Below are positions 35,237-53,131 of a DNA stretch of 64,000 bases, in pieces. Made by a program: the position numbers and the translations under genes. Each line of letters opens with the position of its first letter. Positions within the stretch are counted from its first letter, which is position 1. Origin of the DNA: Deltaproteobacteria bacterium (GTDB lineage Bacteria > Myxococcota_A > Polyangia > Fen-1088); the NCBI GenBank assembly GCA_033763315.1, contig JANRKS010000028.1:32001-96000 (forward strand), given 5' to 3'. The notes below the pieces were generated by a model. That model saw nothing but the letters and a program-made list of their open reading frames with translations, had not been told where the DNA came from and ran no database searches.

Positions 35237-35248
35237 ATAATCGATTAG
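35237..35248. promoter_or_regulatory. Palindromic operator, LacI-type (ATAATCGATTAG), site 1
   Basis: TAATCGATTA perfect palindrome (35238-35247) in the divergent gap between the GH-like gene and DUF1592 copy 1; recurs at 46297, 52206 and 53120. Confidence 0.7.
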
Positions 35249-35343
35249 CTGAGCGAGCTTTCGTCAGGTCAATCTTGAACGCGTCATCGGTTGAGACCTG
35301 ATTGAAACATTTTCTGATCCAGCGACACCAACGATGACTGGAT

Positions 35344-37083
35344 GTGCCAATGCCAATGAAGTTCTTGGATGGAGTCCTCAAGCTGCGAATCGGGATCCTA
35401 AGCTGCGTAGCTGCGTGCGGTGGAGTAATTCCCAACGGGTATACCGAAGATGACGCTCCGACCGCATCAGGCGGAGACCGAGGCGGCGAAGGCAGCGCGG
35501 GGGGGGCGAGCCCCGCTCCTGCCTCTGGAGGCCTATTTACCTGCGAACGCGGAAGCGTTGCGGCCACGCCGAAGCGCATTTGGCGATTGTCACCGCAGCA
35601 GTACAGCAATACCGTCGAAACTCTGTGGGGGGGCCGTGACCGCCCCACCAAAGCGAACGTCGAGCGGCCCTCTCCCTTCGATGACGAGCCAGTCGTCGAC
35701 CGCTTTTCCACCTTCTCGCGGGCTCACCTGATTAGCGACTTGGCGTTCGGGCGTGTACTGGATTCTGCGTCACGGGTAGCGAATGAGTATGTTCGTTATT
35801 TGCATGCGCAACACCGCAGCTGCCCGACCAACGACAACGTCTGCGCCTTTGCCGTGGTGCAAGAGGCCGCAGAGAAACTGTTTCGCCGCCCGTTGCAGCC
35901 CGTAGAGGACGACCAGTATAAGAAGCTTCTCACCGAAGGACGCGCGCTGTTGGGCGATGAGCAGGGGCTGGCGCTGGTGATCGAAAGCCTTTTGTTGGCG
36001 CCCTCGTTCCTTTACCGGGTGGAACTTGGCCGAGACGAGCTCGACGATACCGGACGCACCCGCCTATCGTCGTATGAAATTGCGTCTGCGATTTCCTATA
36101 GCCTCACGGACGCACCGCCCGACGAGGCGTTGTGGAAGGCGGCGCAAGCCAACGCCTTATCGACCGCGGATGACATTCGCGCGCAGGTGCAAAGGCTAGC
36201 CAGCCTACCAGCGCACCGAAACACCGTAATGCTTTTCCTAAAGGAATACTTTCGCCACAGCATGGCCCAAGACGTGTTCAAGGACGACAAGCAAGTGCCT
36301 TTTCACGATGCGGCCCTGCTCATTGATGACACCGATCGCTGGCTTGCTGAGGTGTACGAGCAGACGGGGCGAGACCAATTTTTAAAGGGTCTTTTGACAT
36401 TTGATCAGGTGGTGGTGCGAGGCAAAACGGCACCCAATTACAATCTTGAAAAGGAGATCGCCGCAGACGCGGCCCCCAAGCTGGTGAGAGCGCCCGACAA
36501 CCAGCGCGTGGGCATGCTTGCGCAACCTAGTTTCCTGACAGCACTGTCCCACAGCGAAGCGACGGATCCCGTACGACGCGGCCGTTTCGTGGCTGAAAAC
36601 CTGTTGTGCGTAGACATACCAGAGTTGCCAATTGGGCTTGTCCCTGAGTTACCCGAAGCAACGGCGGAATCAACGCTCCGCGACCGATTGAAACAACACG
36701 TGGAGGATGATTCCTGCAAGGCTTGCCACAAATTGATGGATCCCATCGGGCTCGGGTTCGAAGGATACGATCACGTAGGCCGCATTCGCGCAACCGAGGG
36801 AGGAAAGCCCGTAAACACCCAGGGCGTCCTGGTAGGCGCCGACGTGCAGGAGGAGCCGTTCGAAGGCGTAGCGCAGCTGGCACAAAAATTGGGAGACAGC
36901 TCGTTGGTGAGCCAGTGCTTTGTGCGGCACGGGTTTTCTTACTGGTTAGGTCGAGCGACGGAGGACAGCGATGGCTGTGCCTTGCAGGCAGTTCACGACG
37001 CGTTCGTCAAGTCGGGGCAAGACCACGTGGCTTTGCTAACGAGCCTGTTTTCATCTGAACCGTTTTTACTTCGGAGGCCATAA
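35344..37083 (+). CDS. DUF1592/DUF1588-family (PSD/PSCyt3) lipoprotein with c-type haem motif, copy 1
   Basis: Lipobox VAAC; WRLSPQQYSNTV, LFRRPL, PSFLYRVE, YEIASAISY..PPD, TDPVRRG, CKACH..MDPIGLGFEGYD. Confidence 0.9.
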   Translation: MPMPMKFLDGVLKLRIGILSCVAACGGVIPNGYTEDDAPTASGGDRGGEGSAGGASPAPASGGLFTCERGSVAATPKRIWRLSPQQYSNTVETLWGGRDRPTKANVERPSPFDDEPVVDRFSTFSRAHLISDLAFGRVLDSASRVANEYVRYLHAQHRSCPTNDNVCAFAVVQEAAEKLFRRPLQPVEDDQYKKLLTEGRALLGDEQGLALVIESLLLAPSFLYRVELGRDELDDTGRTRLSSYEIASAISYSLTDAPPDEALWKAAQANALSTADDIRAQVQRLASLPAHRNTVMLFLKEYFRHSMAQDVFKDDKQVPFHDAALLIDDTDRWLAEVYEQTGRDQFLKGLLTFDQVVVRGKTAPNYNLEKEIAADAAPKLVRAPDNQRVGMLAQPSFLTALSHSEATDPVRRGRFVAENLLCVDIPELPIGLVPELPEATAESTLRDRLKQHVEDDSCKACHKLMDPIGLGFEGYDHVGRIRATEGGKPVNTQGVLVGADVQEEPFEGVAQLAQKLGDSSLVSQCFVRHGFSYWLGRATEDSDGCALQAVHDAFVKSGQDHVALLTSLFSSEPFLLRRP

Positions 37084-37086
37084 GCA

Positions 37087-38553
37087 ATGTCAAAACCGAA
37101 ACCGCTTGGTTCATCCGTGGTTCGCTGTGCACCGTTTACGCGACGGTCTTTACTGGAACGGCTGGGCTTTGGTGCCGGCGCCGCGTTGTTGGCGCCAATC
37201 ACGCAGTCGTTGTTGTCACAGGCGCAAGGCGCCACGCAAACACGCAAATGCGCCGTGTTCGCGCTGTGCGGAAATGGCTTGCACGCGACGTGGAACTTCC
37301 TGCCCCAGGAGTTCAATAAGTATGAGGCCACCGAGAAGTACTTCAACACCAAGTGGGACATGCGCCTGCCCGGAACCACCACCTACACGCTGCCGACGTT
37401 CTTGGAACCGGTGAAGCGGTGGCGGGATCGCATGCTATTGATCGATGGGTTAGAGAACAAAATCCCACGTTCTCAACACTCCGCTGGATACGGCGCCCTT
37501 TCTTGCACCGCTTCGCCCAACGACGCCGCGGCTGAAGCAGGCGGCCCACCTGGTGGTATCACCATCGATCAGCACATCGCACAAGGCATCGGCAAGAACA
37601 CAGCGCACAAGTCAATCCTGTTTGGATTTAACAAATATAAAGAGACGAACACGATCTTTGCCTCAGGGCGCGACAAGCCACAGCCCAACTTTGTGAATCC
37701 GAACGAAATGTTCAAAACTCTGTTCGGTTCGATCACCGGGGGCGAGGGGCTGCAAAAGGCCAACGCGCGTCAGCGTCTTTTGTTGGACGCGATGAAGGCG
37801 GACATCGCGCGCCTGCAGCGCGAGCTGGCTCCCGAGGAGAAACGCAAGCTTGAGGTGCATCTTGCGGCTGTAGAGGACTTCGAGCGACAACAGGCCTCGC
37901 TCCTAAACTTGAAATGCGATGCACCTATAGCGCCGGCAGTCGACATCAACGCAAAGGTTTCGGTGCCGGAAGATATTTTGGAATCCATGTGGTCGATGGC
38001 CACCCTGGCGCTGGCTTGCGGTATGACCAACGTGGTGGGCATGGCGTGCAACACAGGTATGTCGCACCAGAGGTTCGTTCCCTTCCGGCGCATACACGTG
38101 GGAACACAATTTGAGGCGGGCGGTTCAGTTCCAGGTCACGGCCACGAGGGCCGTTCGCTCCAAAAGCCTGCCATGGATCTCATCCATGGTTTCAACATCG
38201 GCTTGATCGCAAAAATGATCGGCATACTTTCGTTGATCAAGGAGGGTGATCGAACCATTTGGGACAATATGGTTGCGGTTTACACCAGCGACAACGGAGA
38301 GGCCCACCATAACAGCGGCGTACGATGGCCTATCGTGGTGTTGGGGAATGCTGGCGGCGCATTGAAGTCGGACGGGCGATACCTTGCTTATCCCTCTCGC
38401 GGCACGAAGGTGGAGGCCGAGAAGGGGAAATGGCGACCACTCGCCGACCTTTACAGCACTCTCGCTACGGCGGTAGGCGTGCCCACGACGGCTTTCGGAA
38501 CCGGCGGTGTTTATCAGACGGTCAAGGGGCCGCTACCTGAAGTTCTTGCGTGA
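37087..38553 (+). CDS. DUF1552 (HXXSHH) family Tat-exported protein, copy 1
   Basis: TRRSLL Tat motif; TIDQ.IA, NP...F..LF, E..KLE.HL..V..FE, ALACGMTNV, TSDNGEAHH, GNAGG.LK. Confidence 0.9.
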   Translation: MSKPKPLGSSVVRCAPFTRRSLLERLGFGAGAALLAPITQSLLSQAQGATQTRKCAVFALCGNGLHATWNFLPQEFNKYEATEKYFNTKWDMRLPGTTTYTLPTFLEPVKRWRDRMLLIDGLENKIPRSQHSAGYGALSCTASPNDAAAEAGGPPGGITIDQHIAQGIGKNTAHKSILFGFNKYKETNTIFASGRDKPQPNFVNPNEMFKTLFGSITGGEGLQKANARQRLLLDAMKADIARLQRELAPEEKRKLEVHLAAVEDFERQQASLLNLKCDAPIAPAVDINAKVSVPEDILESMWSMATLALACGMTNVVGMACNTGMSHQRFVPFRRIHVGTQFEAGGSVPGHGHEGRSLQKPAMDLIHGFNIGLIAKMIGILSLIKEGDRTIWDNMVAVYTSDNGEAHHNSGVRWPIVVLGNAGGALKSDGRYLAYPSRGTKVEAEKGKWRPLADLYSTLATAVGVPTTAFGTGGVYQTVKGPLPEVLA

Positions 38554-38619
38554 GTCCACAGGCGCTGCAGGTGGTGACCACGGTGCCACCACCTACAAAT
38601 TTCATAGGTGCTGGCGGCG

Positions 38620-40044
38620 TCAGCGTTGGATAGTCCCACAGGTTTGGCCCGCCGCCTGTACAACGGCACCCGCCGTCGGCTCGACCGCAATCTGATACAT
38701 CCCATCTGGAACGTCTTGCCACTGCATGCCCTGCGCGCACGGCGAACGATTGTTGCTCCAGGAGTTGCCGACGGCGACAACGGAGAGCGTTGGATTCCCG
38801 GTGGACCCTGGCGACATGAGCGCGAGATCCACTTTCGCATCAATGCCGATCGAGAACACATTGCCGCCCGGCGCGCTTTCGGTGCCGAGGTCATAGGCTG
38901 TTCCCGAGATAGGATCGATGAGCAAGCCAGCTCTCCTCTGCGCCTTGAAGCTTGAAGCACGCATCACCAACCCGCGAGAGAACGCTGCACCGAAAACTCC
39001 GTCAACGATGGTGGCTCCCGTCATTTGCGTCGGGCTGTCGCTGCGAATGCCGGTGCTATTTGCCGTCGCTGAGAGATCGATGCGGGCACGTTCGATGATG
39101 AGTTCGCCCGCGCCGCCTTTGTTGATTCCGACCGCCCACTTTTGCGCGTCTTCGGCGGCGTAAGCGAACGTGATAATCGTATCACGGATGAATGTTGTGG
39201 TGATTTGTCCACTGAGGTTGTCCTGCTTGACGTTGACCGCAGGGGCATCGCTGCCAAGCCCCGGATCTGGGCCGATCTTCGCTACACCAACTGTCAGGTT
39301 TGCGGCGTCCAAACGCACGAGGTCGTTCGCGTTGATCGCGGGCGTCACAACCGCGTTGAAAGTAGACTGCGTGATGGTCACCGAGGCAAGGGTCCCAAGG
39401 TTAACACCGCGACCGATGCCCTTGCCGTCGACGACGAGTTTCTGGGCCTCGAACGTCCCCAGCGAGGTTCGACTGGCGTCGCGGTCGCCCCCTGCAGACA
39501 ATGCCCAGGCATTAGGCTGAGCTGGACTCAACGAAACGTCCGAGAATACAACTGTGTGGCTGCCGCCGCGCATATCGAGCCTCACTGCCGCGCAGTTCTG
39601 GCAAGGGACTGTCCCCATCCGGTCAATGGAGAGACCACTGATCTGTTTTGAGCCCCAGATCTGCAAGACGGCCGGACTCGCGCCGGTCTCGTCAAGCAGC
39701 GTGGTCACCCCCGCGCCGGCGCCACGAATCGACTTGTGCCGATCACTATCCAGATTCAGCGGGAATGTTTCGCCGCCTGCCACGCTATAAAGGCCTGGGG
39801 CGACGACGATGTCAGCGCCTCCGCGCGCGAAATTAAGCGCATGGGTGATCGTTCGGAAGGCACTGGTCGGCGAACGACCGCTGTCCGAATTGTTGCCCGC
39901 GGTGGCGTCGACATAGAAAATGCCGCCCGAGTTATCTTCGCCGCAAGCGACGAGGTGAGCGCCGCCTGCCATCACCAACACCAACAGGGCCAGTGCGCGT
40001 TGAGCCAACGCTGATGCAGTGTTTTTGGATCCTAGATGATTCAT
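38620..40044 (-). CDS. DUF1565-like parallel beta-helix lipoprotein
   Basis: Lipobox LVAC; FYVDATAGNNSDSGRSPTSAFRTITHAL...VAPGLYS...GETFPL; GTESAPGGNVF...GNSW. Confidence 0.8.
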   Translation of the reverse strand: MNHLGSKNTASALAQRALALLVLVMAGGAHLVACGEDNSGGIFYVDATAGNNSDSGRSPTSAFRTITHALNFARGGADIVVAPGLYSVAGGETFPLNLDSDRHKSIRGAGAGVTTLLDETGASPAVLQIWGSKQISGLSIDRMGTVPCQNCAAVRLDMRGGSHTVVFSDVSLSPAQPNAWALSAGGDRDASRTSLGTFEAQKLVVDGKGIGRGVNLGTLASVTITQSTFNAVVTPAINANDLVRLDAANLTVGVAKIGPDPGLGSDAPAVNVKQDNLSGQITTTFIRDTIITFAYAAEDAQKWAVGINKGGAGELIIERARIDLSATANSTGIRSDSPTQMTGATIVDGVFGAAFSRGLVMRASSFKAQRRAGLLIDPISGTAYDLGTESAPGGNVFSIGIDAKVDLALMSPGSTGNPTLSVVAVGNSWSNNRSPCAQGMQWQDVPDGMYQIAVEPTAGAVVQAAGQTCGTIQR

Positions 40045-41858: not shown

Positions 41859-43400
41859 TCAAGGTGATGACGGACAAGCGGGGCCTACAGACTGCCACTT
41901 CAGCCCGGTGTTTGTGATCAATCCGAATCGCTGAAGGCCCACCCCCTGACGGCCAAAGCCGAATCGAAGGACGCCATCAGTGACGATCATCTGAAGCTCC
42001 TCGGTTTCGGCCCCCGTTGGGGAACACCCCGAGGCAGCCAAGGAAGCGGCGAAAGCGGAGCCTTCGGGAATCATGGCAATCATCTCATCGCTAAAGACGC
42101 CTATATGATCAACTATCAGATCGGTGCGAATGCCGGCGAATTGGCTGAGCACGAACGGGCTGCCGGAGATCGCGTGGGCAGCGTTGTAAGAAACCGTGAT
42201 CATTCGGCTCAAGGGCGTAGACACAAAGAGAAAGGTCACGTTGCGAGCCGGTGCGTTTAAGGGGTCCAAGGCAACGAGTCCCTGATTGTTCAGGCCCGTC
42301 ACGGTGACACGCCCGAGCTTCGCGTCTGGATGGGCAGCCCGCGCCTCCTGCACTGCCGCAGCAATGATGGTCCGCAGGCTGGAAGTGGAGGCAACTGGCG
42401 TCGCTGGCGCTGCAAGCGGCCGCAAGACGCGAAGATCAAAGACGTCGTCTCGCTCACAAGGTGTCGCGCCGCTCATGGTACCGAGATCCGATGTCAAATC
42501 GATCTGTGTGGTGGCCTCATCGACGATCTCGAAACCAAATCCGAGAGGGCTCTGCGGATCACAGCGCACGCGCGCCAAATGGTAGGGCTGCCGAATCGCC
42601 GCGGGATTGATGATTCCCTTGGCACAGCGGGGCGTGCTTAATGCCGCCTTTAGCGACGGTGCTGCGGCCAGAACCACTAAATTGCCACCGGTGGCGAGCA
42701 GATTCTGGAAATAGCGGGAGGGCAGCCCCGGAAGCTGGGGCCAGGGCAAAGCACCCTGATTCGGCATGGACTCTCCCTCAAGCAGGATGTCTGCAACGTC
42801 GAAACACGCTGGCCAGCCTGCCTCGGCAGACGCGGTCGAAGCCGCCTCTAAGTAGCAGCTGACGAGCGGCGCGAACGTTTCGTCGCTCACAGGCGGCGGC
42901 ACCAGCTGGGGCAAAAGCACAAGCTGCGACCAAGCGGACTGCAGGCGGGTATAAGCCAACGCAGGATCTACGAACGCATGAAGCGCGACAAAGTGCAGCT
43001 CGCCCTTTAGGCGTGCCATCATTTCCGCGTCGGTTGTCTTATCGGAGGCCAACAGGCGATGAGCGACGGGCGGGGGGCAAAGTCGTTCCGGTGGGATCAA
43101 ATCGTCTTGCACGATTGAGAAGGTAAACTCAGCGGGAAAGGCGGTGGCGACGATCGGCAACGCCTGGTGCAGCGGGCGAACGGCAGAGGTCGACAAGGCA
43201 GCGGCGGCCGACGCACGATGAGCCCAGGCCAGCGAAAGGCGTAGCCGCTCCCCTTGGCGGACCGGTCGTGCGAAGGACGACATCACACCCGCTCCGAGAA
43301 ACTTCGGTGTGCCCGCGTAGCCCTTCTCGGCAAGGGGATCGCCACACGCGCAAAACGCCAACCAGAACAAAACAAAAACGGCCTTACCAGTGACAGCCAA
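41859..43400 (-). CDS. Hypothetical lipoprotein, last gene of the ECF-caspase operon
   Basis: TTG start at 43400 with AGGAG RBS, overlapping the caspase stop; lipobox FCAC followed by GDPL...Y.G.P. Confidence 0.7.
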   Translation of the reverse strand: MAVTGKAVFVLFWLAFCACGDPLAEKGYAGTPKFLGAGVMSSFARPVRQGERLRLSLAWAHRASAAAALSTSAVRPLHQALPIVATAFPAEFTFSIVQDDLIPPERLCPPPVAHRLLASDKTTDAEMMARLKGELHFVALHAFVDPALAYTRLQSAWSQLVLLPQLVPPPVSDETFAPLVSCYLEAASTASAEAGWPACFDVADILLEGESMPNQGALPWPQLPGLPSRYFQNLLATGGNLVVLAAAPSLKAALSTPRCAKGIINPAAIRQPYHLARVRCDPQSPLGFGFEIVDEATTQIDLTSDLGTMSGATPCERDDVFDLRVLRPLAAPATPVASTSSLRTIIAAAVQEARAAHPDAKLGRVTVTGLNNQGLVALDPLNAPARNVTFLFVSTPLSRMITVSYNAAHAISGSPFVLSQFAGIRTDLIVDHIGVFSDEMIAMIPEGSAFAASLAASGCSPTGAETEELQMIVTDGVLRFGFGRQGVGLQRFGLITNTGLKWQSVGPACPSSP

Positions 43401-44964
43401 ATCCCGCTCCTGGCATAGGGCGCACATCGATGTGTGCGCCGGTTTCGTTCGTGGAATCAACCGTTGCGGTTGATGACACCAGCAGCTCGCTTTCGATCGA
43501 GGCGAAGCAGCTCTCGGCGAGCATGACATCCGCACGTGCAACCATTGCGGCCATGGGCACCCACCGGGCCCGAGACTGTTCACCCGCAGCGTGAAACTCC
43601 TGATGGACCCAACCTAACCCCAAACGTAGCCCCGCGGATGCCGAAACACGGCCAAAGTCGAAGACCTTCCTGGCGCCCATGCGCAAAGCACTTTCACGCA
43701 AAGTGGTTTGTGCGCCAGTTGGCTCTGCCGCCGTTCCCTGGTTATAGCCGCCAAGGACGTCGAAGGTCACGGTCCGAAGGTCAATGGAGAACGTCGCTTT
43801 CACCCCCGGCCCCCAACCGTAGTCAAGGAGCGGTCGGGTCCACCCACCGTAAAGGCCTAAACCGTAAACACGCGAGGGCCCGCTGCCTTTGCGTAAGAGT
43901 TGCGCGTTGCGGACGCGCGTAAAACCTTGACCAGTCAGGTTCACGGTGACGCCCGCTTTCGCCTCCACGTGGCCTTCACGGATTTCGTCGGCCTCGCGGA
44001 TCTGAACGAAGTAGCGCCCTGGCTCCACCCACAAGTTTTTCGGCTGGCTTGTCACGCTGGCTTCGGCCACCACGGCGCCGTCTTTGCCCCCAAGGAAGAT
44101 CACAAAACGTCCTGGACGTTGCAGGCGAAGGTGGCTCGCGTTCTCTGTGTCAATGGGTGCCGCCAGTGTGAGATCTGCGCGCCCCTTGAGCTCGTAATTG
44201 TAGGTTGGATGTTGAATGCCAGCGCCGCTTCCTGCGGTGCTCGCCACGGTGCGTTCGGACGTATAAGTGTAGGCTTCCGATAAGCCAATGCGCCCGTCGC
44301 CGTTCACGTCGGCAGCGCCGTGCAGCGCAGAGATCAGATGATGTGTGAAGAAGGATGCCTGGAGCGCATCCGATTCTTGCGCGTCTTCACCTTCGGCCGC
44401 CGAGGAAAAGATGACAAAGCCCTCTGGCATGCCTTCCTGATCGGGCGGCATTGCGAAAGGCGCAATGGGCTTGATGCCCTTGACCCGCGTTGCCACGCCC
44501 GAGCGACATGCATCCACGAACAAGAGCCGCACGTTCGCTGATGAGCTAACGGTACCCTCGCGCAGTTCATCCCAGCTCAAGCGTCCGTTGCCCAGGTGAA
44601 GCGAGAGGTGATCGCCGTGGCCTGAAAAGAACACCAACACAACGCTGCGTCGAGCCGCGGAGACCTCCAAACGGATCCGGTGGTTCAAGCGGCGAAGCGC
44701 GTCTCGAACCCGATCGGCCGTGGGTTGCTCAAGCACGATCACGTTTTCGGAGAGAAACCCTCCCACAGACTTTAAGGCCTGCCCCACGCGAACGGCGTCT
44801 CGAACAGCGTAACGAAGAGGCACTTCATTTGAAGCGCCAAGGTTCGCGCCAATGATCAAAGCGTACCGCACCTCGGGAAGCGCCTCCGCTTGGGCCATTG
44901 GCGCTTGGAACGCTCGCCACAAACAAAAGGCGAGCGCCAAGGCTATGGCACCACGCAACGTCAA
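43384..44964 (-). CDS. Caspase-family (peptidase C14) exported protein with C-terminal beta-barrel-like domain
   Basis: Signal peptide; RYALIIGAN, LRYAVRDA, FFSGHGD (His), VDACRSG (Cys), AQES...SFFTHHL, QHP; amphipathic beta strands ending in Trp; TTGA overlap with the anti-sigma gene. Confidence 0.88.
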   Translation of the reverse strand: MTLRGAIALALAFCLWRAFQAPMAQAEALPEVRYALIIGANLGASNEVPLRYAVRDAVRVGQALKSVGGFLSENVIVLEQPTADRVRDALRRLNHRIRLEVSAARRSVVLVFFSGHGDHLSLHLGNGRLSWDELREGTVSSSANVRLLFVDACRSGVATRVKGIKPIAPFAMPPDQEGMPEGFVIFSSAAEGEDAQESDALQASFFTHHLISALHGAADVNGDGRIGLSEAYTYTSERTVASTAGSGAGIQHPTYNYELKGRADLTLAAPIDTENASHLRLQRPGRFVIFLGGKDGAVVAEASVTSQPKNLWVEPGRYFVQIREADEIREGHVEAKAGVTVNLTGQGFTRVRNAQLLRKGSGPSRVYGLGLYGGWTRPLLDYGWGPGVKATFSIDLRTVTFDVLGGYNQGTAAEPTGAQTTLRESALRMGARKVFDFGRVSASAGLRLGLGWVHQEFHAAGEQSRARWVPMAAMVARADVMLAESCFASIESELLVSSTATVDSTNETGAHIDVRPMPGAGFGCHW

Positions 44965-45668
44965 GGCGGACTCTCGACGGGAATGCTGGCAGATGACGAC
45001 GCACAATCTCGGGGTGGGTCGTCCTTCTTTGCCAACTTGCAAAGCCGCCATCGCAGACGCACCGGTGCCCCCGCAGTCACCTCGAACCCCAGCGGGATCC
45101 AATCTCCGGATTTCACAGCGCCCACGAAGACCGCCTGCCAGCCGGCGTTGGTCTCGACTTCGAGCTGCAACCAATTCTTGGTGCCAACCGCATGAAACCG
45201 CAGCTTGTCGCCTGCTTGCAGCACAGACACCTCCCGAACCTCCATGACGGCGACGTTGCCATCGTGGTCGCGCACACCCATCTTTAGCGAGGCTTCGCCC
45301 TTGGCGCGGACGGTTTCGTCGTGCACGATTGTCGACGGCCTTGGTACCGAGAAGAAGAGCACCAGAGCCATCGCTGGTACCGCCAAGGCTCCCACCCACA
45401 TCCAAAATGGATCCCGCCGCCGCAGGTTACCTTGGTGGGGCCTCACGATTTGCGCGGGTGCGAGGCTGCCAGCCGACGATCGACGCGCCGCCTCGACCTC
45501 TGCGAGAATTTTTCGGCTGGCCGCCGAGTTCCTCGTCCTGGCTTCAAAAGCCGCGCGCTCGACGTCGCTCATCTCGTTCAAGGCCCAACGGTGTGCTTGC
45601 CACTCGGAAATCTCGCATTCCGGGTCGCGCTCGCGCGTGAACAAATCTTTGGATGGGGCGGCGGACAT
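44961..45668 (-). CDS. Putative membrane anti-sigma factor (ActD-like)
   Basis: N-terminal ISEWQAHRWALNEMS (degenerate anti-sigma domain lacking HxxxCxxC), single TM helix, VRAKG motif, extracytoplasmic domain; TGATG overlap with sigma. Confidence 0.7.
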   Translation of the reverse strand: MSAAPSKDLFTRERDPECEISEWQAHRWALNEMSDVERAAFEARTRNSAASRKILAEVEAARRSSAGSLAPAQIVRPHQGNLRRRDPFWMWVGALAVPAMALVLFFSVPRPSTIVHDETVRAKGEASLKMGVRDHDGNVAVMEVREVSVLQAGDKLRFHAVGTKNWLQLEVETNAGWQAVFVGAVKSGDWIPLGFEVTAGAPVRLRWRLCKLAKKDDPPRDCASSSASIPVESPP

Positions 45669-46261
45669 CAATAGGCCTCGAGCAGGCGGCGCGCCTGCTT
45701 GGTGAAGCGCTCAATCCGTCGGCCAACCGTGCGGCGGGGCACGCCAACAAGGCTGGCGATCTCATCCTGATCCATTCCGTCGATGAAGTGATGAATGGCC
45801 ACGATGGCATTCTCTGGATCGACTTGTCCCAACAGCCAACGGATGTCTGCCCGGAGGTCTGCTTGGGGGCCCGCGAGGGGTGCATCCGGTTGATACACTT
45901 TCTCGCGCAAAAGTCTCTCTCTGGTCTTGCTGTCCCTTAGAACGTTGAGCGCCAGGTTGGTGACGGCACGGAACAGAAAGGCCGCCGCGTGTTGTTCCCT
46001 ACCGCCCCTTTCGCGATGAACGATGAAACTAACAAACGCTTCGTGTGCCAGATCTTTCGCGAGCTCTTCATTGCGAACCAATCGCGTTGCACGACGGCGA
46101 AGCAGCCCTATGTGAGTTCCATAGAGTTCGTTGACGTCGTCGACAGCCGAGACAGCGGTGGAAGATGCCGTGGATGGTCTTGATGCTTGGACAAACGCTC
46201 GTGCGCGCCGCGGGACGAGCCGCCAAAAAACATCGTTCGGGACGGTTTCTAATTTTGACAT
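45668..46261 (-). CDS. ECF sigma factor
   Basis: Region 2 AKDLAHEAF...FLFRAVTNLALN.LR; region 4 DGMDQDEIASLVGVPRRTVGRR. Confidence 0.92.
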   Translation of the reverse strand: MSKLETVPNDVFWRLVPRRARAFVQASRPSTASSTAVSAVDDVNELYGTHIGLLRRRATRLVRNEELAKDLAHEAFVSFIVHRERGGREQHAAAFLFRAVTNLALNVLRDSKTRERLLREKVYQPDAPLAGPQADLRADIRWLLGQVDPENAIVAIHHFIDGMDQDEIASLVGVPRRTVGRRIERFTKQARRLLEAY

Positions 46262-46296: not shown

Positions 46297-46312
46297 GGCT
46301 AATCGATTAGCC
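46297..46312. promoter_or_regulatory. Palindromic operator, LacI-type (GGCTAATCGATTAGCC), site 2
   Basis: Perfect 16-bp palindrome in the divergent gap between the ECF sigma and Gfo/Idh/MocA genes. Confidence 0.75.
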
Positions 46313-46396
46313 AGGTGAATTTCTCGACGCCGCGTCTCAAGTCAGCGGCAGCAGACGCCTGTCGACCAGTTGTGAAAAGGCGTTAAACTCTTGGAG

Positions 46397-47404
46397 ATGA
46401 AGCCGCTTACAGGCGCGATTGTTGGCTGCGGCATGATTTCCGAGTTCCACTTGCGGGCTTGGCAATGCCTCGAAGGCGTTGACATCACGGCGTTTTGCGA
46501 TGTGGACGAGGCTGCTGGCTCGCGGCGGCGTGATGAATACTTTCCCAACGCAAGGGTATACAGCGACCTTGCGGCCTTGCTCGCGAACGAAGACGTTGAC
46601 TTTATCGATGTGGCCAGCCCACCGGACTTCCATGCTGCGCACGTAAGCCTGGCCTTGGCCGCCAACCGCCATGTGATCTGCCAAAAACCACTGACCTCAG
46701 ACGCAGCGACCGCAACCGCATTGGCAACGTCCGCGCGCGAACGGCAGCTTACGCTGGCGGTTCATGACAACCACAGGTTTCGTCCCTGGTTCCAACGCGT
46801 CCTCGCCGCCCACGCCCGCCAACAGTTTGGCCACGTGGTGCATGTGCGTTGGCACCAGTACGATGCAGCGGCCCCTTCGCAACGCTACAAGGTTAAAGCG
46901 CCCCAAGGTGTGCTGTTCGAGTACGGCACGCACTTCATTGATATGATGCTGGCATTGCTCGGCGAACCCAAGGATGTATCGGCGCAGCTGTCTCGTATCA
47001 ACGAAAGCGTGGCGGGCGAGAGCTTCGCGCACCTCATGTTTCGTTATGAAAACAGTGGTGTGGACATTTCAGTTGGATGGAAGAATGCCGGGCCACTTTC
47101 AGCCGGGTTTCATCTCTTGGGCACAACCGGCGAAGTCATCTATGAAGGCACGCTCACACGGGGGCCACAAAGCCATCTGCAAATTCTTACTTCAGGAAAG
47201 CTTCTTGCCGACGAGCGAAGAGATCCCACGGCCGATTACATCGAAAGCTTCATTGCTTACCAGCAGGCCTTCGTGGCGTCGCTGCGTGCCACCCCACAGC
47301 CACCACCCCCCATTACGGCCACCGAAGGTGCTGCCGTATTGGCGTGGACCGAGGCTGCATATGAATCTGCGCGCACCGGCAAGCCTATTGCTAAGCGTCT
47401 GTGA
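46397..47404 (+). CDS. Gfo/Idh/MocA family NAD(P)-dependent oxidoreductase
   Basis: IVGCGMIS, DVASPPDFH, HVICQKP, HDNHRFRP, EYGTHFID, AAYESA. Confidence 0.92.
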   Translation: MKPLTGAIVGCGMISEFHLRAWQCLEGVDITAFCDVDEAAGSRRRDEYFPNARVYSDLAALLANEDVDFIDVASPPDFHAAHVSLALAANRHVICQKPLTSDAATATALATSARERQLTLAVHDNHRFRPWFQRVLAAHARQQFGHVVHVRWHQYDAAAPSQRYKVKAPQGVLFEYGTHFIDMMLALLGEPKDVSAQLSRINESVAGESFAHLMFRYENSGVDISVGWKNAGPLSAGFHLLGTTGEVIYEGTLTRGPQSHLQILTSGKLLADERRDPTADYIESFIAYQQAFVASLRATPQPPPPITATEGAAVLAWTEAAYESARTGKPIAKRL

Positions 47405-47407: not shown

Positions 47408-48787
47408 ATGCCCATGAAATCCACCCCTGCCAACGTTGTCGGCCTTGTCGCCGTGGTGGCGCTTCCCCTCTTTGCCGGTTGTGCGCCATCCCCCAACGCG
47501 ATCCCTACGTCCGCGGCAAGGGACGATTTGGTGCGTTTTGGTGCGCCTTTTACATCCGTGTTTCGCCCAGATCCTGAATCGCCCTATCACCTGCGCAACC
47601 AGGAGGGGCAGCACCTGTTCATATTGGCCAAAACCGCATGGCATTACTTCAACGCCAAAGATCCCCAGCAAGTGTTGCAGCACGCGCGTGCCCTGGGCGC
47701 AAACGTGATTCGCGTGGCGCTTGAGGGCAATCTGTATTTTGAGGAGTTGAGCATCGATGCGTGGCCGTGGTCAGGAACCCGCAAGCAGCCGCACTTCGCG
47801 ACCTTCAACGAAGCATACTGGACGCGGGTGCAAGACCGGATCGAGTTGGCGGGGCGAGCCGGCATCGGCATCGATCTGGTACTCTATGCTTCATTGCATC
47901 TGAACGAAGACGCCGTGCCCGAACAGCGCCTGTATTGGCAACGTGTGTTGGAAAGGCTGGGTCGCTACAGCAACATCCTTACCTGGGAGATCCAAAATGA
48001 ATACGTGGCAAATGAGCGTTTTCAAGACGAAGTAGCGGCGTTCTTTCAGCAGCACGATCAACATAGACGGCCGATCATCACCTCGAATGGCACGCGTGAC
48101 GTCCCCACGTGGCCGGAAAAACCATGGATGGGCATGGCCATCACCCACACGTGTACAGGCTCCACCAATAGTCATCCGCTGGGGCGTTGGTACCTGGCGG
48201 TGGCACGCAACGCACGCACATTCGGCAAGCCTTCCTTCAACAACGAAACCGGACGAGAGACTCGTCATCGCAACGATGATGGTGTGCACAGGCGCAAACA
48301 AGCGTGGCTGTGGAGCACGGCAGGAGGCTTTTGGACGTGGCACAGTTGGGATGGGTGTGAAGGCATCAACGATGCCACCTACAAGGCGCCTGGCGAAGAC
48401 TTCATGTTGCCCCTGGCCACGTTCTTTCGGTCGCTACCGTTTTGGCGGCTGCACCCGGAACACGTGGCGGTGCAGATCTCAGACGACCGTTTGATCCACG
48501 CGGCGCAGGCCAACGTTGAGCGTGAATACGTAATGACTTATGTGGCCACCTTAGCGACAAATGCGCAGGTGCAGGGAGCCCAGCTTCAGTATCGTTTGCG
48601 TGATGGACGCTACCACGTGACGTTTCGGGATCCGGCGAGTGGCCGTGTGGTAGATGAAACCGACCTTGAGGCCAAAGGCATTGGCACCGTGGACGTGTTG
48701 CCGATACCAACTTTTCGCGACGATTTGGTGATCGAGTTGCGCCGAACCAAAACCGCAAAGGTCACAGAGATGCCGGCCACCCACTGA
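47408..48787 (+). CDS. Putative glycoside hydrolase lipoprotein (DUF4038-like clan-A TIM barrel)
   Basis: Lipobox FAGC; TAW, GANVIRV, FNEAYW, WEIQNEY (acid/base-like), FNNETG (nucleophile-like), RKQAW...AGG; C-terminal DPASG beta domain. Confidence 0.72.
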   Translation: MPMKSTPANVVGLVAVVALPLFAGCAPSPNAIPTSAARDDLVRFGAPFTSVFRPDPESPYHLRNQEGQHLFILAKTAWHYFNAKDPQQVLQHARALGANVIRVALEGNLYFEELSIDAWPWSGTRKQPHFATFNEAYWTRVQDRIELAGRAGIGIDLVLYASLHLNEDAVPEQRLYWQRVLERLGRYSNILTWEIQNEYVANERFQDEVAAFFQQHDQHRRPIITSNGTRDVPTWPEKPWMGMAITHTCTGSTNSHPLGRWYLAVARNARTFGKPSFNNETGRETRHRNDDGVHRRKQAWLWSTAGGFWTWHSWDGCEGINDATYKAPGEDFMLPLATFFRSLPFWRLHPEHVAVQISDDRLIHAAQANVEREYVMTYVATLATNAQVQGAQLQYRLRDGRYHVTFRDPASGRVVDETDLEAKGIGTVDVLPIPTFRDDLVIELRRTKTAKVTEMPATH

Positions 48788-48867: not shown

Positions 48868-50334
48868 CTACGCTTTGATCTGGCCCAGAACTTTATCCCG
48901 CTGGGCAGCGTCTTTGGAGAAGCCCATGAACTGGTTCACGCCCAGTCCCTGCAGCACGGCGTTGTAGAAGTTGGAGGCATGGGTGTCGAACATGAAGGGT
49001 TGCCCCGTCTTAAAGCGCCCGTTGGCGCCCGAAATCACGTGCAACACGTTACGCGTGGAATGCCCGCCGCCCCCATCTCCCAACTCTGACGACACCATCA
49101 CCGGATTGGCTTCAAGGTACGTTTTGCCGTTTTCTGCCTGGATTCGGTCCAGCCGCGACAGAAAATATTCGACCTGGGCAAGCATGTAGAGCGAGTGCAT
49201 GCGCGCGCCGATGTTGGCGCTGCTGTTTTCGTCATTCGCGACATTGTGGTAGTAGCTCAGGTGATTGGATTCGCCGTTGTCTGCGAAGTTGATGGTCTGA
49301 TCTTTGTACTTCCAAGCCGTCTTGAACCGCACGTGATCACCGGCACCTTGGAACGTGATGTTGCCAAAGCGTGCGATGTCGCAGGATAGGGCCATCGCAT
49401 ACGTGTCGGCCATCGCTTGCCAAACCTTCTCCCACATCACAGCATCCACTACACGATCGTTGCTTCCGGCTCCCTCCTTTTCAAGGGCACGACGACTTGT
49501 TGTAACCTGAGGCGCACTCAGCGTGCATGCTGCAGAGGTTCCTCCGCCATCAGCTTGAAGCTGGCCAATGCGCAGCTCGAGGCTGCGGACCTCTTCAAGG
49601 TGGTCACGAAGGCGGGCTCGGCTGGAAGAACTCAACCCTGCGGCATCGGATGTCCAATGTTTGTACTCTTCCATCGCGGTGTCGAGCACACTCTTGGCGT
49701 AGATCTGCTTCTTGTTGTCAACAGGTGCGCTGCCCATAGGTGGTTTAGGGGCTGGCGCGAGACCCATGACCGCCTTGAACAAAACATCTACTTCAGAATA
49801 GGGCTCGGCGGCCACCTGCCCGTCCTCACGCCACGTGTGCCGCTCGTTCGAATAGTTCCGAGTGTTAAAGTATGTGGCCGCCGCCAAGGTTTGGATTGGC
49901 GAAGGAGAACGGCCACCAGCGTAGCCGTTCTTAAGAACCACCTGATCAATGGATGCGCCCTGGGCGCGAATGCTCGAAGTTGAGCCCCGTCCGGCGATAC
50001 CCGTGAAGCACTGCACGCCAGACTGCGCGTGCGTGCCGCTTTCAGTTTGATGAAGGCCGCTGTAGATGCCGAGCTTCGACCGCAAACCGTCGAGCGGCAG
50101 CAAAGGGTCGGGCGCCAAGCGAGGGCCGGCTCCATAGTGCGTTTGAAACCAACGGCCGGTCACGCCGTGGGCGAAGAACACCGTGACGAAGCGTGCTGGC
50201 ACAGGCTCGGGGGCGCCGAAGGCACTGTTGCGGCGCATTTCATCCAGCATTGGCATGCCGATCAATGCGCCGGCGGCGCTTCGCAAGAACGTGCGACGCG
50301 GAAGAACGTGGCGATACTTAAGATCGAGTTTCAT
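48868..50334 (-). CDS. DUF1552 family Tat-exported protein, copy 2
   Basis: PRRTFLR Tat motif; FFAHG, SIDQ, SVLD, RLRDHLEEVRSLE, ALSCDIAR, SSELGDGGGGHS, GANGRFKTG; start trimmed to ATG 50334. Confidence 0.9.
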   Translation of the reverse strand: MKLDLKYRHVLPRRTFLRSAAGALIGMPMLDEMRRNSAFGAPEPVPARFVTVFFAHGVTGRWFQTHYGAGPRLAPDPLLPLDGLRSKLGIYSGLHQTESGTHAQSGVQCFTGIAGRGSTSSIRAQGASIDQVVLKNGYAGGRSPSPIQTLAAATYFNTRNYSNERHTWREDGQVAAEPYSEVDVLFKAVMGLAPAPKPPMGSAPVDNKKQIYAKSVLDTAMEEYKHWTSDAAGLSSSSRARLRDHLEEVRSLELRIGQLQADGGGTSAACTLSAPQVTTSRRALEKEGAGSNDRVVDAVMWEKVWQAMADTYAMALSCDIARFGNITFQGAGDHVRFKTAWKYKDQTINFADNGESNHLSYYHNVANDENSSANIGARMHSLYMLAQVEYFLSRLDRIQAENGKTYLEANPVMVSSELGDGGGGHSTRNVLHVISGANGRFKTGQPFMFDTHASNFYNAVLQGLGVNQFMGFSKDAAQRDKVLGQIKA

Positions 50335-50359
50335 CTGAGGCTCCCTGCGTTTGATAAAG

Positions 50360-52105
50360 TCACTGCGCAGCTCGCACCATGCGAAATTGCGGGTCTTCCA
50401 CCACCGCGGCGAACAGCGCGTACAAGCTGTTTCCATTCTTCGCGGCCCTTGCACGAATGTTGTAAACGGGGCATGCGTCTTTGCCTTGAGTCTCAAGCCC
50501 CCGGCCCCAAGCGTACTGGGTCACCTTTTGCGAAAGACAACTTCGGAAGCGCACGTCTTCGCTCAGCAGCCTTAGGAAGTCGCGATGACCCTCGTAGGGC
50601 CGATCTTCTTCAACGTCGGGCGAGCCCATCCACAACATCGTGCCATCGGTTCGCAAAACGTTATCGTTGCCGTCACGTTCAACCCAACGACCCGTGCCGT
50701 CAAAACGTTCAAAGGGAAACGCCAGCGGATCGAAGCCGCTATGGCAGGCTCGGCAGGTGCCGTTCTCGGCTCGCGCGTCAGCATTCATGCGCTCGGTGAC
50801 CCCCGGCCCTAAAGGCCGTTGGTTCAATGCCGTGTTCACGTTTGGCCCCGGAGCCGCGGGGCTTTGGCACAAAATTGTCTTGAAGATGGTGAGTCCGCGT
50901 TCAACAACTTTGGGAATGTCGGCACCAGCATGGGCCATGAGGAATCCAGCATGTGTGAGGAAACCCAGTCGTGGTTGGTTGTCTGGCAGTTCAACCCGCC
51001 CGAACGTGTCGCTGGCATTCGCAGCACCTACGCCCGAGTGCTGGGCTAAGCGACGTGACGTAAAGGTGAAGGGCGCCGTTGCCAGCTCCCACGCAGGCGT
51101 ATCTCTGTCGTCGAGAAAGTGCTCGAACAACTGCAACGACTCTTGCACCATGTCGTTGCGAAGCTCAGCGCCAAGCGGCACATCGCTCTCGTCGCGTGTG
51201 GTGTCTGCAATTAAGTCCAAGCCCAACCACTCGGATACAAACGTGCGGAGGCCCTTCTTCGCGCGTGGATGCTTCATCAATCGCTCAAACTGCGAGGTCA
51301 ATCCAGCAGCGCGATCGAGGTCGCCCTTCTGGGCCGCATCCAGGAGCTCTGCATCTGGGCCCGAGCCCCATGCCAAGAACGCAAGACGCGTGGCTAGTTC
51401 ATAACCATCTAATTTTCGAGCGGGACCATTTTCTGGCGCAGGTTCTAGCCGGTAAAGAAACTGCGGGGAGGCAATCAGGGCGCGAAGAACCAACGTCGCG
51501 CCCATGCCGAAATCATCGCCTTGGTCCTTGGCCACCTTAAAGAGGCTCTGAAACCGCGACACTTGGCCTTCATCCAGGGGATGCCGCAGCAATCGTCGCC
51601 CCAACTCCTGCGTGAATCGTTTTTCGCACGGATCGCCGAATGCATCGCACCCAGCCAGCGCCTTTGTTGAAGAGCGTACTTTTGTGGCCACTTTTTCGGC
51701 CCATACGTCAATGCTCTGCACGAACTGCTGCGACGTAAGCAGCACCTGAACGTCGTTGCGGAACCCTTCAGGCGCCCGCACACCCACCGGCAAAGTTTCG
51801 CCAAGTTCGTCCAGCTCAAGAGCCACTTCGACAGATCTCATGATCTCGTCGGCGCTAAGCCGACGCAAGGGAACCACAGGAACATCCTGATCGTCCTGCA
51901 TGCACTCGACGGGCTTTTCGCCCACGAACGGCGGTGGTTGGCTGTCATCATCGGGGGGCGGCTGATCGTCGTTTGACGGGTCCTCCTCATCCGAGCTGCG
52001 ACCTTTGTTGATGCCGCCCGTGCATCCTGCAAAGGCTGTCGCCAACGCAACACCCAAGACAACAAGTCGAAATGGTTGAACAAGCCCACATTCCAAGAAC
52101 TTCAT
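50360..52105 (-). CDS. DUF1592/DUF1588-family lipoprotein with c-type haem motif, copy 2
   Basis: Lipobox FAGC; LRRLS, SPQFLYRLE, YELATRLAFLAW..PD, VERG, CRACHSGFDPLAFPFERFD. Confidence 0.9.
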   Translation of the reverse strand: MKFLECGLVQPFRLVVLGVALATAFAGCTGGINKGRSSDEEDPSNDDQPPPDDDSQPPPFVGEKPVECMQDDQDVPVVPLRRLSADEIMRSVEVALELDELGETLPVGVRAPEGFRNDVQVLLTSQQFVQSIDVWAEKVATKVRSSTKALAGCDAFGDPCEKRFTQELGRRLLRHPLDEGQVSRFQSLFKVAKDQGDDFGMGATLVLRALIASPQFLYRLEPAPENGPARKLDGYELATRLAFLAWGSGPDAELLDAAQKGDLDRAAGLTSQFERLMKHPRAKKGLRTFVSEWLGLDLIADTTRDESDVPLGAELRNDMVQESLQLFEHFLDDRDTPAWELATAPFTFTSRRLAQHSGVGAANASDTFGRVELPDNQPRLGFLTHAGFLMAHAGADIPKVVERGLTIFKTILCQSPAAPGPNVNTALNQRPLGPGVTERMNADARAENGTCRACHSGFDPLAFPFERFDGTGRWVERDGNDNVLRTDGTMLWMGSPDVEEDRPYEGHRDFLRLLSEDVRFRSCLSQKVTQYAWGRGLETQGKDACPVYNIRARAAKNGNSLYALFAAVVEDPQFRMVRAAQ

Positions 52106-52205
52106 GGGAACCTTTCTTCAAGCCACGCGATAGGTCGTCCACGCGGCGAACGTTGGAGCGAGCGAGCAGCGCCTGAGCCCCATCGACGTGAGACTATGCC
52201 GCCAG

Positions 52206-52217
52206 CTAAACGCTTAG
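52206..52217. promoter_or_regulatory. Palindromic operator variant (CTAAACGCTTAG), site 3
   Basis: CTAA-n-CG-n-TTAG dyad ~100 bp upstream of DUF1592 copy 2. Confidence 0.6.
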
Positions 52218-52283
52218 GCAAGGTATTTTTGCCATATCCAAGAGCGATTTGCACGTCCGCGCGCAGCGGTCTACCTTGACGAG

Positions 52284-53123
52284 ATGGACGAGGCGCTGTT
52301 TGCCATTCACCGGCGAAACAATGAGGCCACGCGCAACGCAAACAACACGTTCAGCGCACACCGTCGCCGTCTTACCAGCCTCCTCGTGCAGACTCCTGGC
52401 GGGCGGCTGGCGGTGCTGGGGGCCGGAAATGGCAATGATTTAGACTGGAACGTATTGTTAGCTGCCTTCGAGGAAGTGCACGTTTTCGACATTGACGAAG
52501 AGGCCACGTCTTACCTCTTGGACGCGCTGCCGAAATCCGCCACACCGGTGGTCGCCCATGCGCCCGTGGACCTTACGGGCACCGCATCACGCTACGCCGC
52601 ATGGCAAGCCCGACGGATCTCTCCGGAAGAATTGACTCTTGTGGCCACGGACGCGATTGAGGCCGTGGCAAGCGACATTGGTGAAACGTACGACGTCGTC
52701 GTCTCCACCTGCCTGCTATCGCAGCTTATGCACGGCGCACGCATCGCGCTTGGCGCGCAGCACGCGGACCTGCGCGCTTTGGCGGTTTGCCTGCAGCTGG
52801 GCCACCTGCGCTTGCTGTCACGTCTGTTGAACAGACATGGCAGGGCAATTTTGGTTTCAGACGTTGCGTCCAACGACGACCTCGATTTACGCCCGGTGGT
52901 GAGCTCTGAAACAGCGGCCCAGGCCATGGCCATGCTCACAGCCAACGGGCGCTGCTTTACCGGAACGGACCCTCTGCAAAGCCTTAGAATGCTTGAGACG
53001 GACGAAGTGCTTGCCACACAGGTGGACGCCCAGCTGCCGCTCAATGCGTGGGTCTGGCAGATGTCCGCTGTCAGGTCCTATCTGGTGGCGGCGCTGACAT
53101 TCGCACGAAAAACGTTGACCTAA
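52284..53123 (+). CDS. Class I SAM-dependent methyltransferase-like protein
   Basis: LAVLGAGNGNDLD, VHVFDID, YDVVVSTCLLSQL motifs. Confidence 0.7.
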   Translation: MDEALFAIHRRNNEATRNANNTFSAHRRRLTSLLVQTPGGRLAVLGAGNGNDLDWNVLLAAFEEVHVFDIDEEATSYLLDALPKSATPVVAHAPVDLTGTASRYAAWQARRISPEELTLVATDAIEAVASDIGETYDVVVSTCLLSQLMHGARIALGAQHADLRALAVCLQLGHLRLLSRLLNRHGRAILVSDVASNDDLDLRPVVSSETAAQAMAMLTANGRCFTGTDPLQSLRMLETDEVLATQVDAQLPLNAWVWQMSAVRSYLVAALTFARKTLT

Positions 53124-53131
53124 TCGATTAG
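53120..53131. promoter_or_regulatory. Palindromic operator, LacI-type (CTAATCGATTAG), site 4
   Basis: Perfect 12-bp palindrome overlapping the upstream stop codon, ~90 bp before DUF1592 copy 3. Confidence 0.7.

Follow-up and report, generated by a model that had tools for sequence, protein, structure and literature searches.

In the available portions of the LacI regulon catalogue (Ravcheev et al. 2014, PMC4052901), even palindromes are given for 1251 of 1303 regulators and a central CG for 1173, the operators are 16-22 nucleotides (nt) long and lie 30-140 bp upstream, autoregulation is recorded for 72% of the regulators, and at least six non-orthologous LacI groups control the use of glucuronate or galacturonate. 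In Gammaproteobacteria, as described in part of PMC9369180, the same pathway genes are placed under one repressor in the GntR-type ExuR/UxuR and the IclR-type KdgR regulons, which belong to other protein families than LacI. Here we analysed a dyad, (G)CTAAnCGnTTAG(C), which occurs at four loci, each between genes, of a 64,000-nt window (the whole stretch of DNA under study, G000:C28:32001-96000, on contig C28 of genome G000). In the window the dyad stands before three DUF1592-DUF1552 gene pairs and before an operon for a Gfo/Idh/MocA oxidoreductase and a hydrolase.

The dyad resembles the LacI operators of the catalogue in its even palindromic form, its CG centre, its AAnCGnTT core and its position 37-100 bp before start codons, and the genes that it fronts elsewhere in the genome (uxaC, kdgK, eda and an acid-sugar-type transporter of the major facilitator superfamily, MFS) correspond to the cargo of the LacI-type ExuR, KdgR, UxaR and UxuR of Firmicutes and Bacteroides, as far as the available text goes (PMC4052901). 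The repressor and inducer logic expected here is likewise that of the catalogued LacI regulons (PMC4052901, in part). In contrast to the known LacI hexuronate regulons, three DUF1592-DUF1552 pairs and lipoproteins resembling glycoside hydrolase family 140 (GH140) are added, in an uncultured host lineage. As a device, this is a LacI-type sugar regulon of the conventional kind; its cargo is the noteworthy part.

The palindromic box in the window and in the genome

A preliminary description of the window had reported the dyad at four places between genes, and all four were located. The operator consensus is rsCTAAnCGnTTAGsy, and the sites are as follows (aa, amino acids; ECF, extracytoplasmic function; ORF, open reading frame).

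Box 1, 35237..35248, ATAATCGATTAG, between the divergent 483-aa apiosidase-like gene and DUF1592 copy 1
Box 2, 46297..46312, GGCTAATCGATTAGCC, perfectly palindromic over 16 nt, in the divergent region shared by the ECF sigma factor gene and the Gfo-hydrolase operon, 25.4 bits
Box 3, 52206..52217, CTAAACGCTTAG, between DUF1592 copy 2 (minus strand) and a 279-aa ORF, 20.2 bits
Box 4, 53120..53131, CTAATCGATTAG, 5' of DUF1592 copy 3 and overlapping the TAA stop codon of the 279-aa ORF, 26.7 bits

Box 1 is separated by 95 nt from the GTG at 35344 of DUF1592 copy 1 and by 43 nt from the ATG at 35193 of the divergent 483-aa gene. On the Gfo/Idh/MocA side of box 2, the gap is 80 nt if the start is the TTG at 46391 and 86 nt if it is the ATG at 46397; on the other side, the divergent ECF sigma gene starts 37 nt away with the ATG at 46261. 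Box 3 lies 100 nt from the ATG at 52105 of DUF1592 copy 2 on the minus strand and 66 nt from the ATG at 52284 of the 279-aa ORF, and box 4 lies 45 nt from the ATG at 53177 or 90 nt from the ATG at 53222 of DUF1592 copy 3. Boxes 1-3 are in divergent regions, so that each of them could act on a promoter on either side. The second hexamer of the sole sigma-70-like match at box 1, TTGCAA-16-AATAAT (a weak consensus match), overlaps that box; the consensus scan gave no sigma-70-like promoter match at boxes 2-4.

The chance level in the window was set by 100 dinucleotide shuffles. TAAWCGNTTA gave seven strand-hits at the four loci against 0.11 expected, and at least seven hits were obtained in 0 of the 100 shuffles. 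A looser form of the motif, TAATCGATTA with up to two mismatches, was not enriched in the window (10 matches versus 6.06 expected; at least 10 in 11 of 100 shuffles).

For the genome of 7.63 Mb (40 contigs, 90.85% complete), coding and intergenic DNA were separated by ORF-based gene calls (5532 genes covering 89.7% of G000). The 10-mer TAATCGATTA has five copies in the genome, three of them in the window with CTAATCGATTAG-type flanks and two with other flanks (TGTAATCGATTACA). When one mismatch was allowed in the 12-mer and the central CG was kept, five matches were found; four are intergenic, and the remaining one is 9 nt ahead of the ATG of a TIM-barrel gene, whose longest ORF begins slightly before that ATG. 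At two mismatches the signal is drowned, with 74 coding versus 12 intergenic matches among 86. With CTAANCGNTTAG at up to one mismatch, 24 of 44 matches (55%) were intergenic, compared to 40 of 244 (16%) for the reversed control. Base composition alone leads to an estimate of about six one-mismatch copies of the 12-mer per genome, and therefore it is the placement of the copies, not their total count, that carries the argument.

A first matrix was trained on the four window sites alone. Outside the window, just two matches reached at least 20 bits, one before uxaC (C17) and one before the IolE-like TIM-barrel gene (C35, hereafter the TIM gene), and below them the scores leave a gap down to 18 bits, where coding noise begins. 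As a control, 150 column-permuted symmetric matrices were run, and at least two such intergenic matches were obtained in 4 of the 150 trials. The genome-wide scan proposed in the preliminary description did lead to further genes, uxaC and the TIM gene. A second matrix, trained on eight sites and then rescored on them, gave nine intergenic matches versus one coding match at 17 bits or more; seven of the nine are training sites, so two new ones count. The 16 columns of this matrix form a symmetric pattern whose signal peaks over the inner 12-14, and the central CG is found in the four window sites and in the sites at uxaC, the TIM gene, kdgK and two MFS genes. The remaining one-mismatch intergenic matches, at genes for PIN, ATP-binding cassette (ABC), RelA/SpoT, SmpB and caspase-domain proteins, showed no coherent theme and were set aside as noise.

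The three DUF1592 copies of the window share only 25-30% identity; among the 118 paralogues of any one of them, the other two come 50th to 104th, and the upstream regions of the three align at the box alone. The dyad was therefore not inherited by duplication, and with flanks that cannot be aligned a duplication remnant is ruled out. Taken together, the features ascribed to the dyad in the preliminary description, an even palindrome with a central CG placed like a LacI operator, hold, and the box is very probably a functional protein-binding operator.

A candidate hexuronate regulon and its proposed repressor

From the end of the uxaC box, GGCTATTCGATTAGGT, it is 20 nt to the called GTG, and by eye this box lies between a weak -35 element and a TAAATT hexamer; the uxaC product is a glucuronate isomerase (NF002794, 618.5 bits, cut-off 387). 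The TIM gene encodes an IolE-like protein of the xylose-isomerase fold. Both boxes, at 20 nt and 9 nt, are nearer to the start than is typical for LacI sites. The box of kdgK, TGCAAAGCGCTTAGGT, which was found through a lead from a sister species, is about 85 nt upstream and directly after a conserved -10-like element, GCTATCGT. The kdgK gene encodes a PfkB kinase whose best matches, below the equivalog cut-offs, are 2-keto-3-deoxygluconate (KDG) and 2-keto-3-deoxygalactonate (KDGal) kinases and the kinase part of an aldolase/sugar-kinase fusion, and it is directly followed by eda (TIGR01182, 183 bits, cut-off 156). Further candidate members are an MFS transporter gene on the contig of the window (best family TIGR00893, of the D-galactonate/hexuronate type, below cut-off), a second MFS transporter gene with a box, and a second Gfo/Idh/MocA gene 2 kb from uxaC, in which the centre of the site is CC. 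The presence of the box before uxaC, kdgK-eda and an acid-sugar-type MFS gene indicates a hexuronate (Ashwell-pathway) regulon, and we consider it fairly probable that the regulon serves uronic-acid sugars. The link of the DUF1592-DUF1552 pairs to sugar catabolism drawn in the preliminary description is thus retained, and the carbohydrate regulon proposed there is narrowed to hexuronates by the boxes at uxaC, kdgK-eda and the acid-sugar-type MFS gene.

The regulator had been placed outside the window, and no LacI gene was found within it. G000 has three LacI-family genes, C19:311346-312328, C34:114749-115759 and C2:386278-387366, and none of them has the same box upstream. Their recognition helices differ (TA, QS and TY) and the Leu context of the hinge helix is common to all three; we take the recognition-helix and hinge residues of the three paralogues to have these roles. 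The neighbours of the C19 and C34 genes are uninformative, and the RbsR-like C2 gene adjoins a ribose-type ABC transporter. The C2 gene is preceded by TGTAATCGATTACA, a bona fide autoregulatory LacI operator, and TGTAATCGTTTACA is found within its operon.

The relatives compared were the same-genus sister species G001 and G002, genomes G014 and G044 of genus g13, and the wider order. In G002, the TIM gene keeps CAAATCGATTAGGTA at 15 of 15 nt within an otherwise unalignable spacer, kdgK keeps GCTAAGCGCTTAT directly after its -10 element, and the second MFS gene keeps CTAGnCGnTTAG, which deviates from the consensus as in G000. In alignments anchored on the box, G000 and G002 are identical at 12/12 positions for TIM and at 10/12 for kdgK and the second MFS gene, compared to 25-43 of 90 positions in the 90-nt flanks. 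In G001, orthologues of uxaC, TIM and kdgK are present, each without the box. Orthologues of the C19 and C34 LacI types are found in G002 (82% and 71% identity), while G001 has no C19- or C34-type match at E<=1e-20 and one divergent LacI helix-turn-helix (HTH) domain. Hence, the presence or absence of these LacI types in the two species matches that of the box at TIM and kdgK. In genus g13, the DNA-binding domain of the C19 type is nearly unchanged, with identical recognition helix and hinge, and the gene is preceded by GCTCATCGATTATC, which overlaps a -10-like element and is identical to box 2 at 12 of 14 positions; these features of the C19 type lead us to favour it over C34. Conservation of the box at orthologous genes, which the preliminary description had called for, thus holds at TIM and kdgK in G002; the box was not found at orthologous genes outside two species of the genus.

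Taken together, these results suggest that the binder of the box is probably a LacI-family protein and, with slightly less assurance, that the dyad serves as operator for a dimeric repressor that responds to a sugar, most likely the orphan LacI C19 or C34, and that governs a uronate-induced regulon. Without inducer, the repressor would sit on or beside core promoters and block transcription; an inducer derived from uronic acid, which the pathway suggests may be a hexuronate, KDG or a small uronide, would release it. Release would switch on one regulon of three layers: an envelope layer, encoded in the window, of two apiosidase-like lipoprotein hydrolases, the Gfo/Idh/MocA protein and the three pairs of a DUF1592 haem-lipoprotein and a DUF1552 Tat protein; an uptake layer of MFS transporters; and a cytoplasmic layer formed by the Ashwell pathway (uxaC, kdgK and eda). 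A repressor that occludes RNA polymerase fits because the boxes adjoin or overlap promoter elements at kdgK (in both species), at box 1 and at uxaC. What the sequences show directly is the sites, their strictly upstream placement, the genes that make up the regulon and the conservation of two sites in one sister species; we infer to which family the repressor belongs, how it represses, what induces the regulon and that the DUF1592-DUF1552 pairs take part in the processing of glycans that contain uronate.

Several observations weigh against a uronate-responsive LacI regulon. In the roughly 300 nt ahead of the C19 and C34 LacI genes no GCTAA-class box was found, and C2 carries the other class; unlike 72% of the LacI regulators in the available portions of PMC4052901, there is no autoregulatory site or regulator beside the targets here. 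The exact 12-mer is absent from 40 relatives, both same-genus genomes included, and uxaC is without a box in 27 relatives, G002 included. Because the window loci have no orthologues in the relatives, no direct footprint can be drawn for any of the four window sites; an orthologue of the 459-aa hydrolase is absent from 88 other genomes of the order, and no box was present in the examined flanks of 20 loci with its distant homologues in other phyla. Genus g13 keeps the C19-type domain, yet its kdgK is boxless and its uxaC and TIM genes have a different palindrome. As for the pathway, the dehydratase step was searched for as UxuA (PF03786) and UxaA: there was no UxuA match in the 90.85%-complete genome, and the one UxaA-like gene is preceded, at 41 nt, by just a weak half-box of 11.7 bits. 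In addition, the promoter assignments are weak consensus matches, the eight-site matrix is circular, in that its own training sites then score high, two weaker candidates (C17:42681 and C32:135148) are centred on CC, and a box-like sequence before exbB, probably something else, is present in all three species, G001 included.

The best surviving alternative is a real operator of the same regulon that is bound by a non-LacI protein, either of another dimeric HTH family or encoded in the unassembled 9% of the genome, and we regard it as rather unlikely. It would account for the lack of a LacI gene with the box upstream, the genome being 90.85% complete, and would agree with the fourth LacI gene of G002, for which the box-like CTTAGCGGTTAG was seen and no orthologue in the G000 assembly; in addition, at 12-14 nt the conserved core is short compared to the 16-22 nt given for LacI operators in the available text of PMC4052901. 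However, the central CG, the AAnCGnTT core, the even symmetry, the placement and the sugar cargo are all LacI-like, the phyletic pattern tracks two LacI paralogues, and the C2 LacI gene of this genome has a sister operator whose 10-bp core is identical. The hexuronate operators of GntR and IclR regulators are longer and AT-rich and are not known to have the CG-centred LacI geometry. As a separate observation, the fourth LacI gene of G002 (G002:C36:6759-7906) has CTTAGCGGTTAG 87 nt upstream and adjoins a PKD/nucleoside-hydrolase-like gene, and its best match in the G000 assembly is 29% identical.

A second possibility is that the RbsR-like C2 LacI binds both classes of box, TGTAATCGATTACA and GCTAATCGATTAGC, and that the window belongs to a ribose-type regulon. 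The two classes have the same 10-bp core, TAATCGATTA, and differ at outer positions alone, and on contig C7 a further DUF1592-DUF1552 pair has a C2-type box in front of it. The outer positions of an operator are the usual specificity determinants in the LacI family, and it is here that the classes consistently differ (TG/CA versus GC/GC, the outer half-site being (G)CT in the box of the window and TGT in the second LacI box), with no intermediates among the top matches; furthermore, the GCTAA class fronts genes of uronate catabolism rather than of ribose use. A shared C2 regulator is therefore improbable. The second operator class, TGTAATCG(A/T)TTACA, was observed at C2:386222-387400 and at C7:3914-3927; the C7 site is in a divergent region 190 nt before the pair C7:4116-7339, and the G002 orthologue of the C2 LacI gene has TGCAATCGTTTACG upstream.

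Chance or non-regulatory palindromes, for example leftovers of mobile or recombination elements in a coincidental sugar context, are an equally poor explanation, if not a slightly poorer one. The genome-wide expectation of about six one-mismatch 12-mers, the mostly coding two-mismatch matches (74/86) and the absence of the motif from nearly all relatives would agree with it. In contrast, there are three exact 11-mers in 18 kb, all intergenic, the intergenic share exceeds that of the control (55% versus 16%), uxaC, TIM and kdgK were matched independently, there are footprints in G002, and a mobile element would be expected to leave shared flanks, of which there are none. Finally, a role of the dyad as an RNA or DNA structure (hairpin, terminator or attenuator) is highly improbable, since, even though the inverted repeat is perfect and a stop codon runs into box 4, loopless abutting AT-rich arms of 6-8 nt would not be expected to form a stable hairpin, no terminator-like sites were found in the box regions, and boxes 1-3 sit in divergent promoter regions, upstream of both neighbours.

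The DUF1592-DUF1552 pairs and the genes at the boxes

The genes around the boxes are given below in the order of their coordinates.

28440..32639, minus strand, 1399-aa secreted protein of no known family, probably the last gene of the operon of the 483-aa and 312-aa genes
32813..33751, minus strand, 312-aa lipoprotein of no known family, downstream of the 483-aa gene in one operon
33742..35193, minus strand, 483-aa lipoprotein with a lipobox, a putative apiosidase-like (GH140-like) TIM-barrel hydrolase by language-model features and predicted structure alone
35344..37083, plus strand, DUF1592 copy 1, PSD5-PSD4-PSCyt3-PSD2 with one CxxCH and a lipobox
37087..38553, plus strand, DUF1552 copy 1 with a twin-arginine motif
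45668..46261, minus strand, ECF sigma factor, divergent from box 2 and 37 nt off
46391..47404, plus strand, Gfo/Idh/MocA oxidoreductase, followed by a PF13204/PF00150 hydrolase gene
47408..48787, plus strand, 459-aa lipoprotein hydrolase, PF13204 apiosidase-like (39.3 bits, cut-off 26.5)
48868..50496, minus strand, DUF1552 copy 2, whose longest ORF overlaps DUF1592 copy 2 by 137 nt
50360..52105, minus strand, DUF1592 copy 2 by Pfam domains, with one CxxCH and a lipobox-like Cys
52284..53123, plus strand, 279-aa ORF with a good coding score and a VLGAGNGND (GxGxG) motif, framed by boxes 3 and 4
53177..54949, plus strand, DUF1592 copy 3 by Pfam domains, with one CxxCH and a lipobox-like Cys
54971..56326, plus strand, DUF1552 copy 3 with a twin-arginine motif

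The three DUF1592 genes of the window matched PF07631, PF07627, PF07637 and PF07624, all over the cut-offs, and each has a PF07586 (DUF1552) gene next to it. Each DUF1592 protein has one CxxCH and a lipobox-like Cys, and the DUF1552 proteins have RR motifs. The true start of DUF1552 copy 2 is probably an internal Met at residue 54, just before a PRRTF twin-arginine motif, and that of DUF1592 copy 3 is probably the ATG at 53222. The gene identities of the preliminary description for DUF1592, DUF1552, Gfo/Idh/MocA and the PF13204 hydrolase stood in the Pfam matches. The 483-aa protein had no Pfam match; against PF13204 clusters of the ESM Atlas it obtained a feature score of 0.93 and template-modelling (TM) scores of predicted structures of 0.65-0.75, soft evidence that makes the glycoside hydrolase-like divergent operon assumed at box 1 a reasonable prediction. 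Sequence searches of the PDB with the 483-, 459- and 312-aa proteins gave nothing significant.

In G000 there are 120 PF07631 matches, and 104 of 119 DUF1592 genes are followed by a DUF1552 gene. The statement that all three DUF1592-DUF1552 operons share the box is thus correct for the window and does not extend to the genome, in which the GCTAA-class box is present at 3 of the 119 DUF1592 genes and the C2-class box at one more. CG-centred palindromes are not enriched upstream of DUF1592 genes (11/119 versus 578/5413 other genes), and with AANCGNTT at 13/119 versus 677/5413 this rules out a general property of DUF1592 promoters. Hence, the box did not turn out to be the general functional handle on these families that had been hoped for.

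A full-text literature search on DUF1592 and DUF1552 returned no assigned function and context-based guesses only. In Verrucomicrobia metagenome-assembled genomes (MAGs), the available text of He et al. 2017 (PMC5615132) describes genes for PSCyt3/PSD proteins ("group III planctomycete-specific cytochrome") paired with a family that it calls unknown, and guesses a carbohydrate role from fusions to carbohydrate-binding modules (CBM) and from sulfatase and glycoside hydrolase neighbours. A DUF1592 protein with a CBM2 is in a lignocellulose proteome table for Cellvibrio (part of PMC6004670). The G000 pairs have the same domain architecture and pairing as those of Verrucomicrobia; beyond what that part of PMC5615132 offers, the link here is regulatory, is to defined catabolic genes and points to uronic acids, for 3 of about 119 pairs.

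DUF1592/PSCyt3 and DUF1552 are encoded by dozens to hundreds of genes in Planctomycetota, Verrucomicrobiota and the present lineage, and a shared operator that ties three functionally obscure pairs to uxaC, kdgK-eda and GH140-like hydrolases is a specific and testable hint. Like polysaccharide utilisation loci (PUL), G000 has many paralogous envelope modules, each apparently with its own regulator (the LacI box of the window and the second box on C7), which suggests that many paralogous pairs are individually regulated; unlike these loci, there is no SusC/SusD pair. We tentatively propose that the pairs act on uronate-containing glycans. More speculatively, the pairs, about 120 per genome, might be substrate-specific periplasmic modules for glycan processing, possibly redox-assisted and PUL-marker-like, each with its own sensor, and the three of the window might be those for uronic-acid glycans of a pectin- or rhamnogalacturonan II (RG-II)-like or glucuronan-like kind. 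A metabolite of uronate would then free these three from a LacI-type repressor at the same time as the GH140-like hydrolases and the Ashwell pathway.

Neighbouring genes and accessory elements

The ECF sigma gene at 45668..46261 is possibly also under box 2. On the minus strand at 41859-46261 of the window, it is followed by genes for a 673-aa caspase-domain protein and a 574-aa protein without a family, and together these genes may form a signalling unit of a sigma/anti-sigma-like kind, with a divergent promoter region in common with the Gfo-hydrolase operon. The 279-aa ORF was rejected as a candidate regulator: it has no Pfam or NCBIfam match, and its GxGxG motif points, by eye, to what looks like a class I methyltransferase.

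The window loci are not syntenic in G001 and G002, where their only counterparts are the sigma gene (G001) and the 1399-aa gene (G002), with no box nearby; the G002 orthologue of the 1399-aa gene is away from the other operon genes. The nearest relatives of the 459-aa hydrolase (43-55% identity) are in MAGs of Planctomycetota, Verrucomicrobiota, Chloroflexota and Bacteroidota.

Oriented to the DUF1592 genes, boxes 1 and 3 share ATGGCAAAAA(C/T)A at an equal offset, 9 nt before TAAnCG (35219-35236, and 52218-52240 on the minus strand), and the counterpart at box 4, CGAAAAAC, is shifted by one position. GGCAAAAA was found upstream of 3 of 119 DUF1592 genes versus 71 of 5413 other genes; this element could be a second site or a promoter element. 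The TGGCAAAAA element that precedes boxes 1 and 3 was discarded as a sigma-54 promoter element, as by eye its spacing does not suit one.

The exbB box was dropped as a member of the regulon, as a near-identical box and the whole region are also kept in G001. Upstream of exbB (G000 C6:253380-253500), about 60 nt are kept in the three species, including AGCTAATCGCTA(A/G)G and a TTTGAATGCCA block, and the divergent neighbour encodes a conserved tetratricopeptide repeat (TPR)-like membrane protein, not a regulator.

In genus g13 (G014 and G044), uxaC and the TIM gene share a different CG-centred palindrome, ATGAwTCGAwTCAT. With up to two mismatches, this motif, ATGAWTCGAWTCAT, gave 43 and 48 matches versus 2 and 1 for the reversed control, coding and intergenic matches taken together, and the same regulon may use a diverged operator in g13. 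In most of 28 family genomes, a -10-like element (GCTACCAT, GCTAGCCT, GGTACTAT and the like) is located about 7-15 nt before the uxaC start; together with GCTATCGT before kdgK, this suggests very short leaders or leaderless transcripts.

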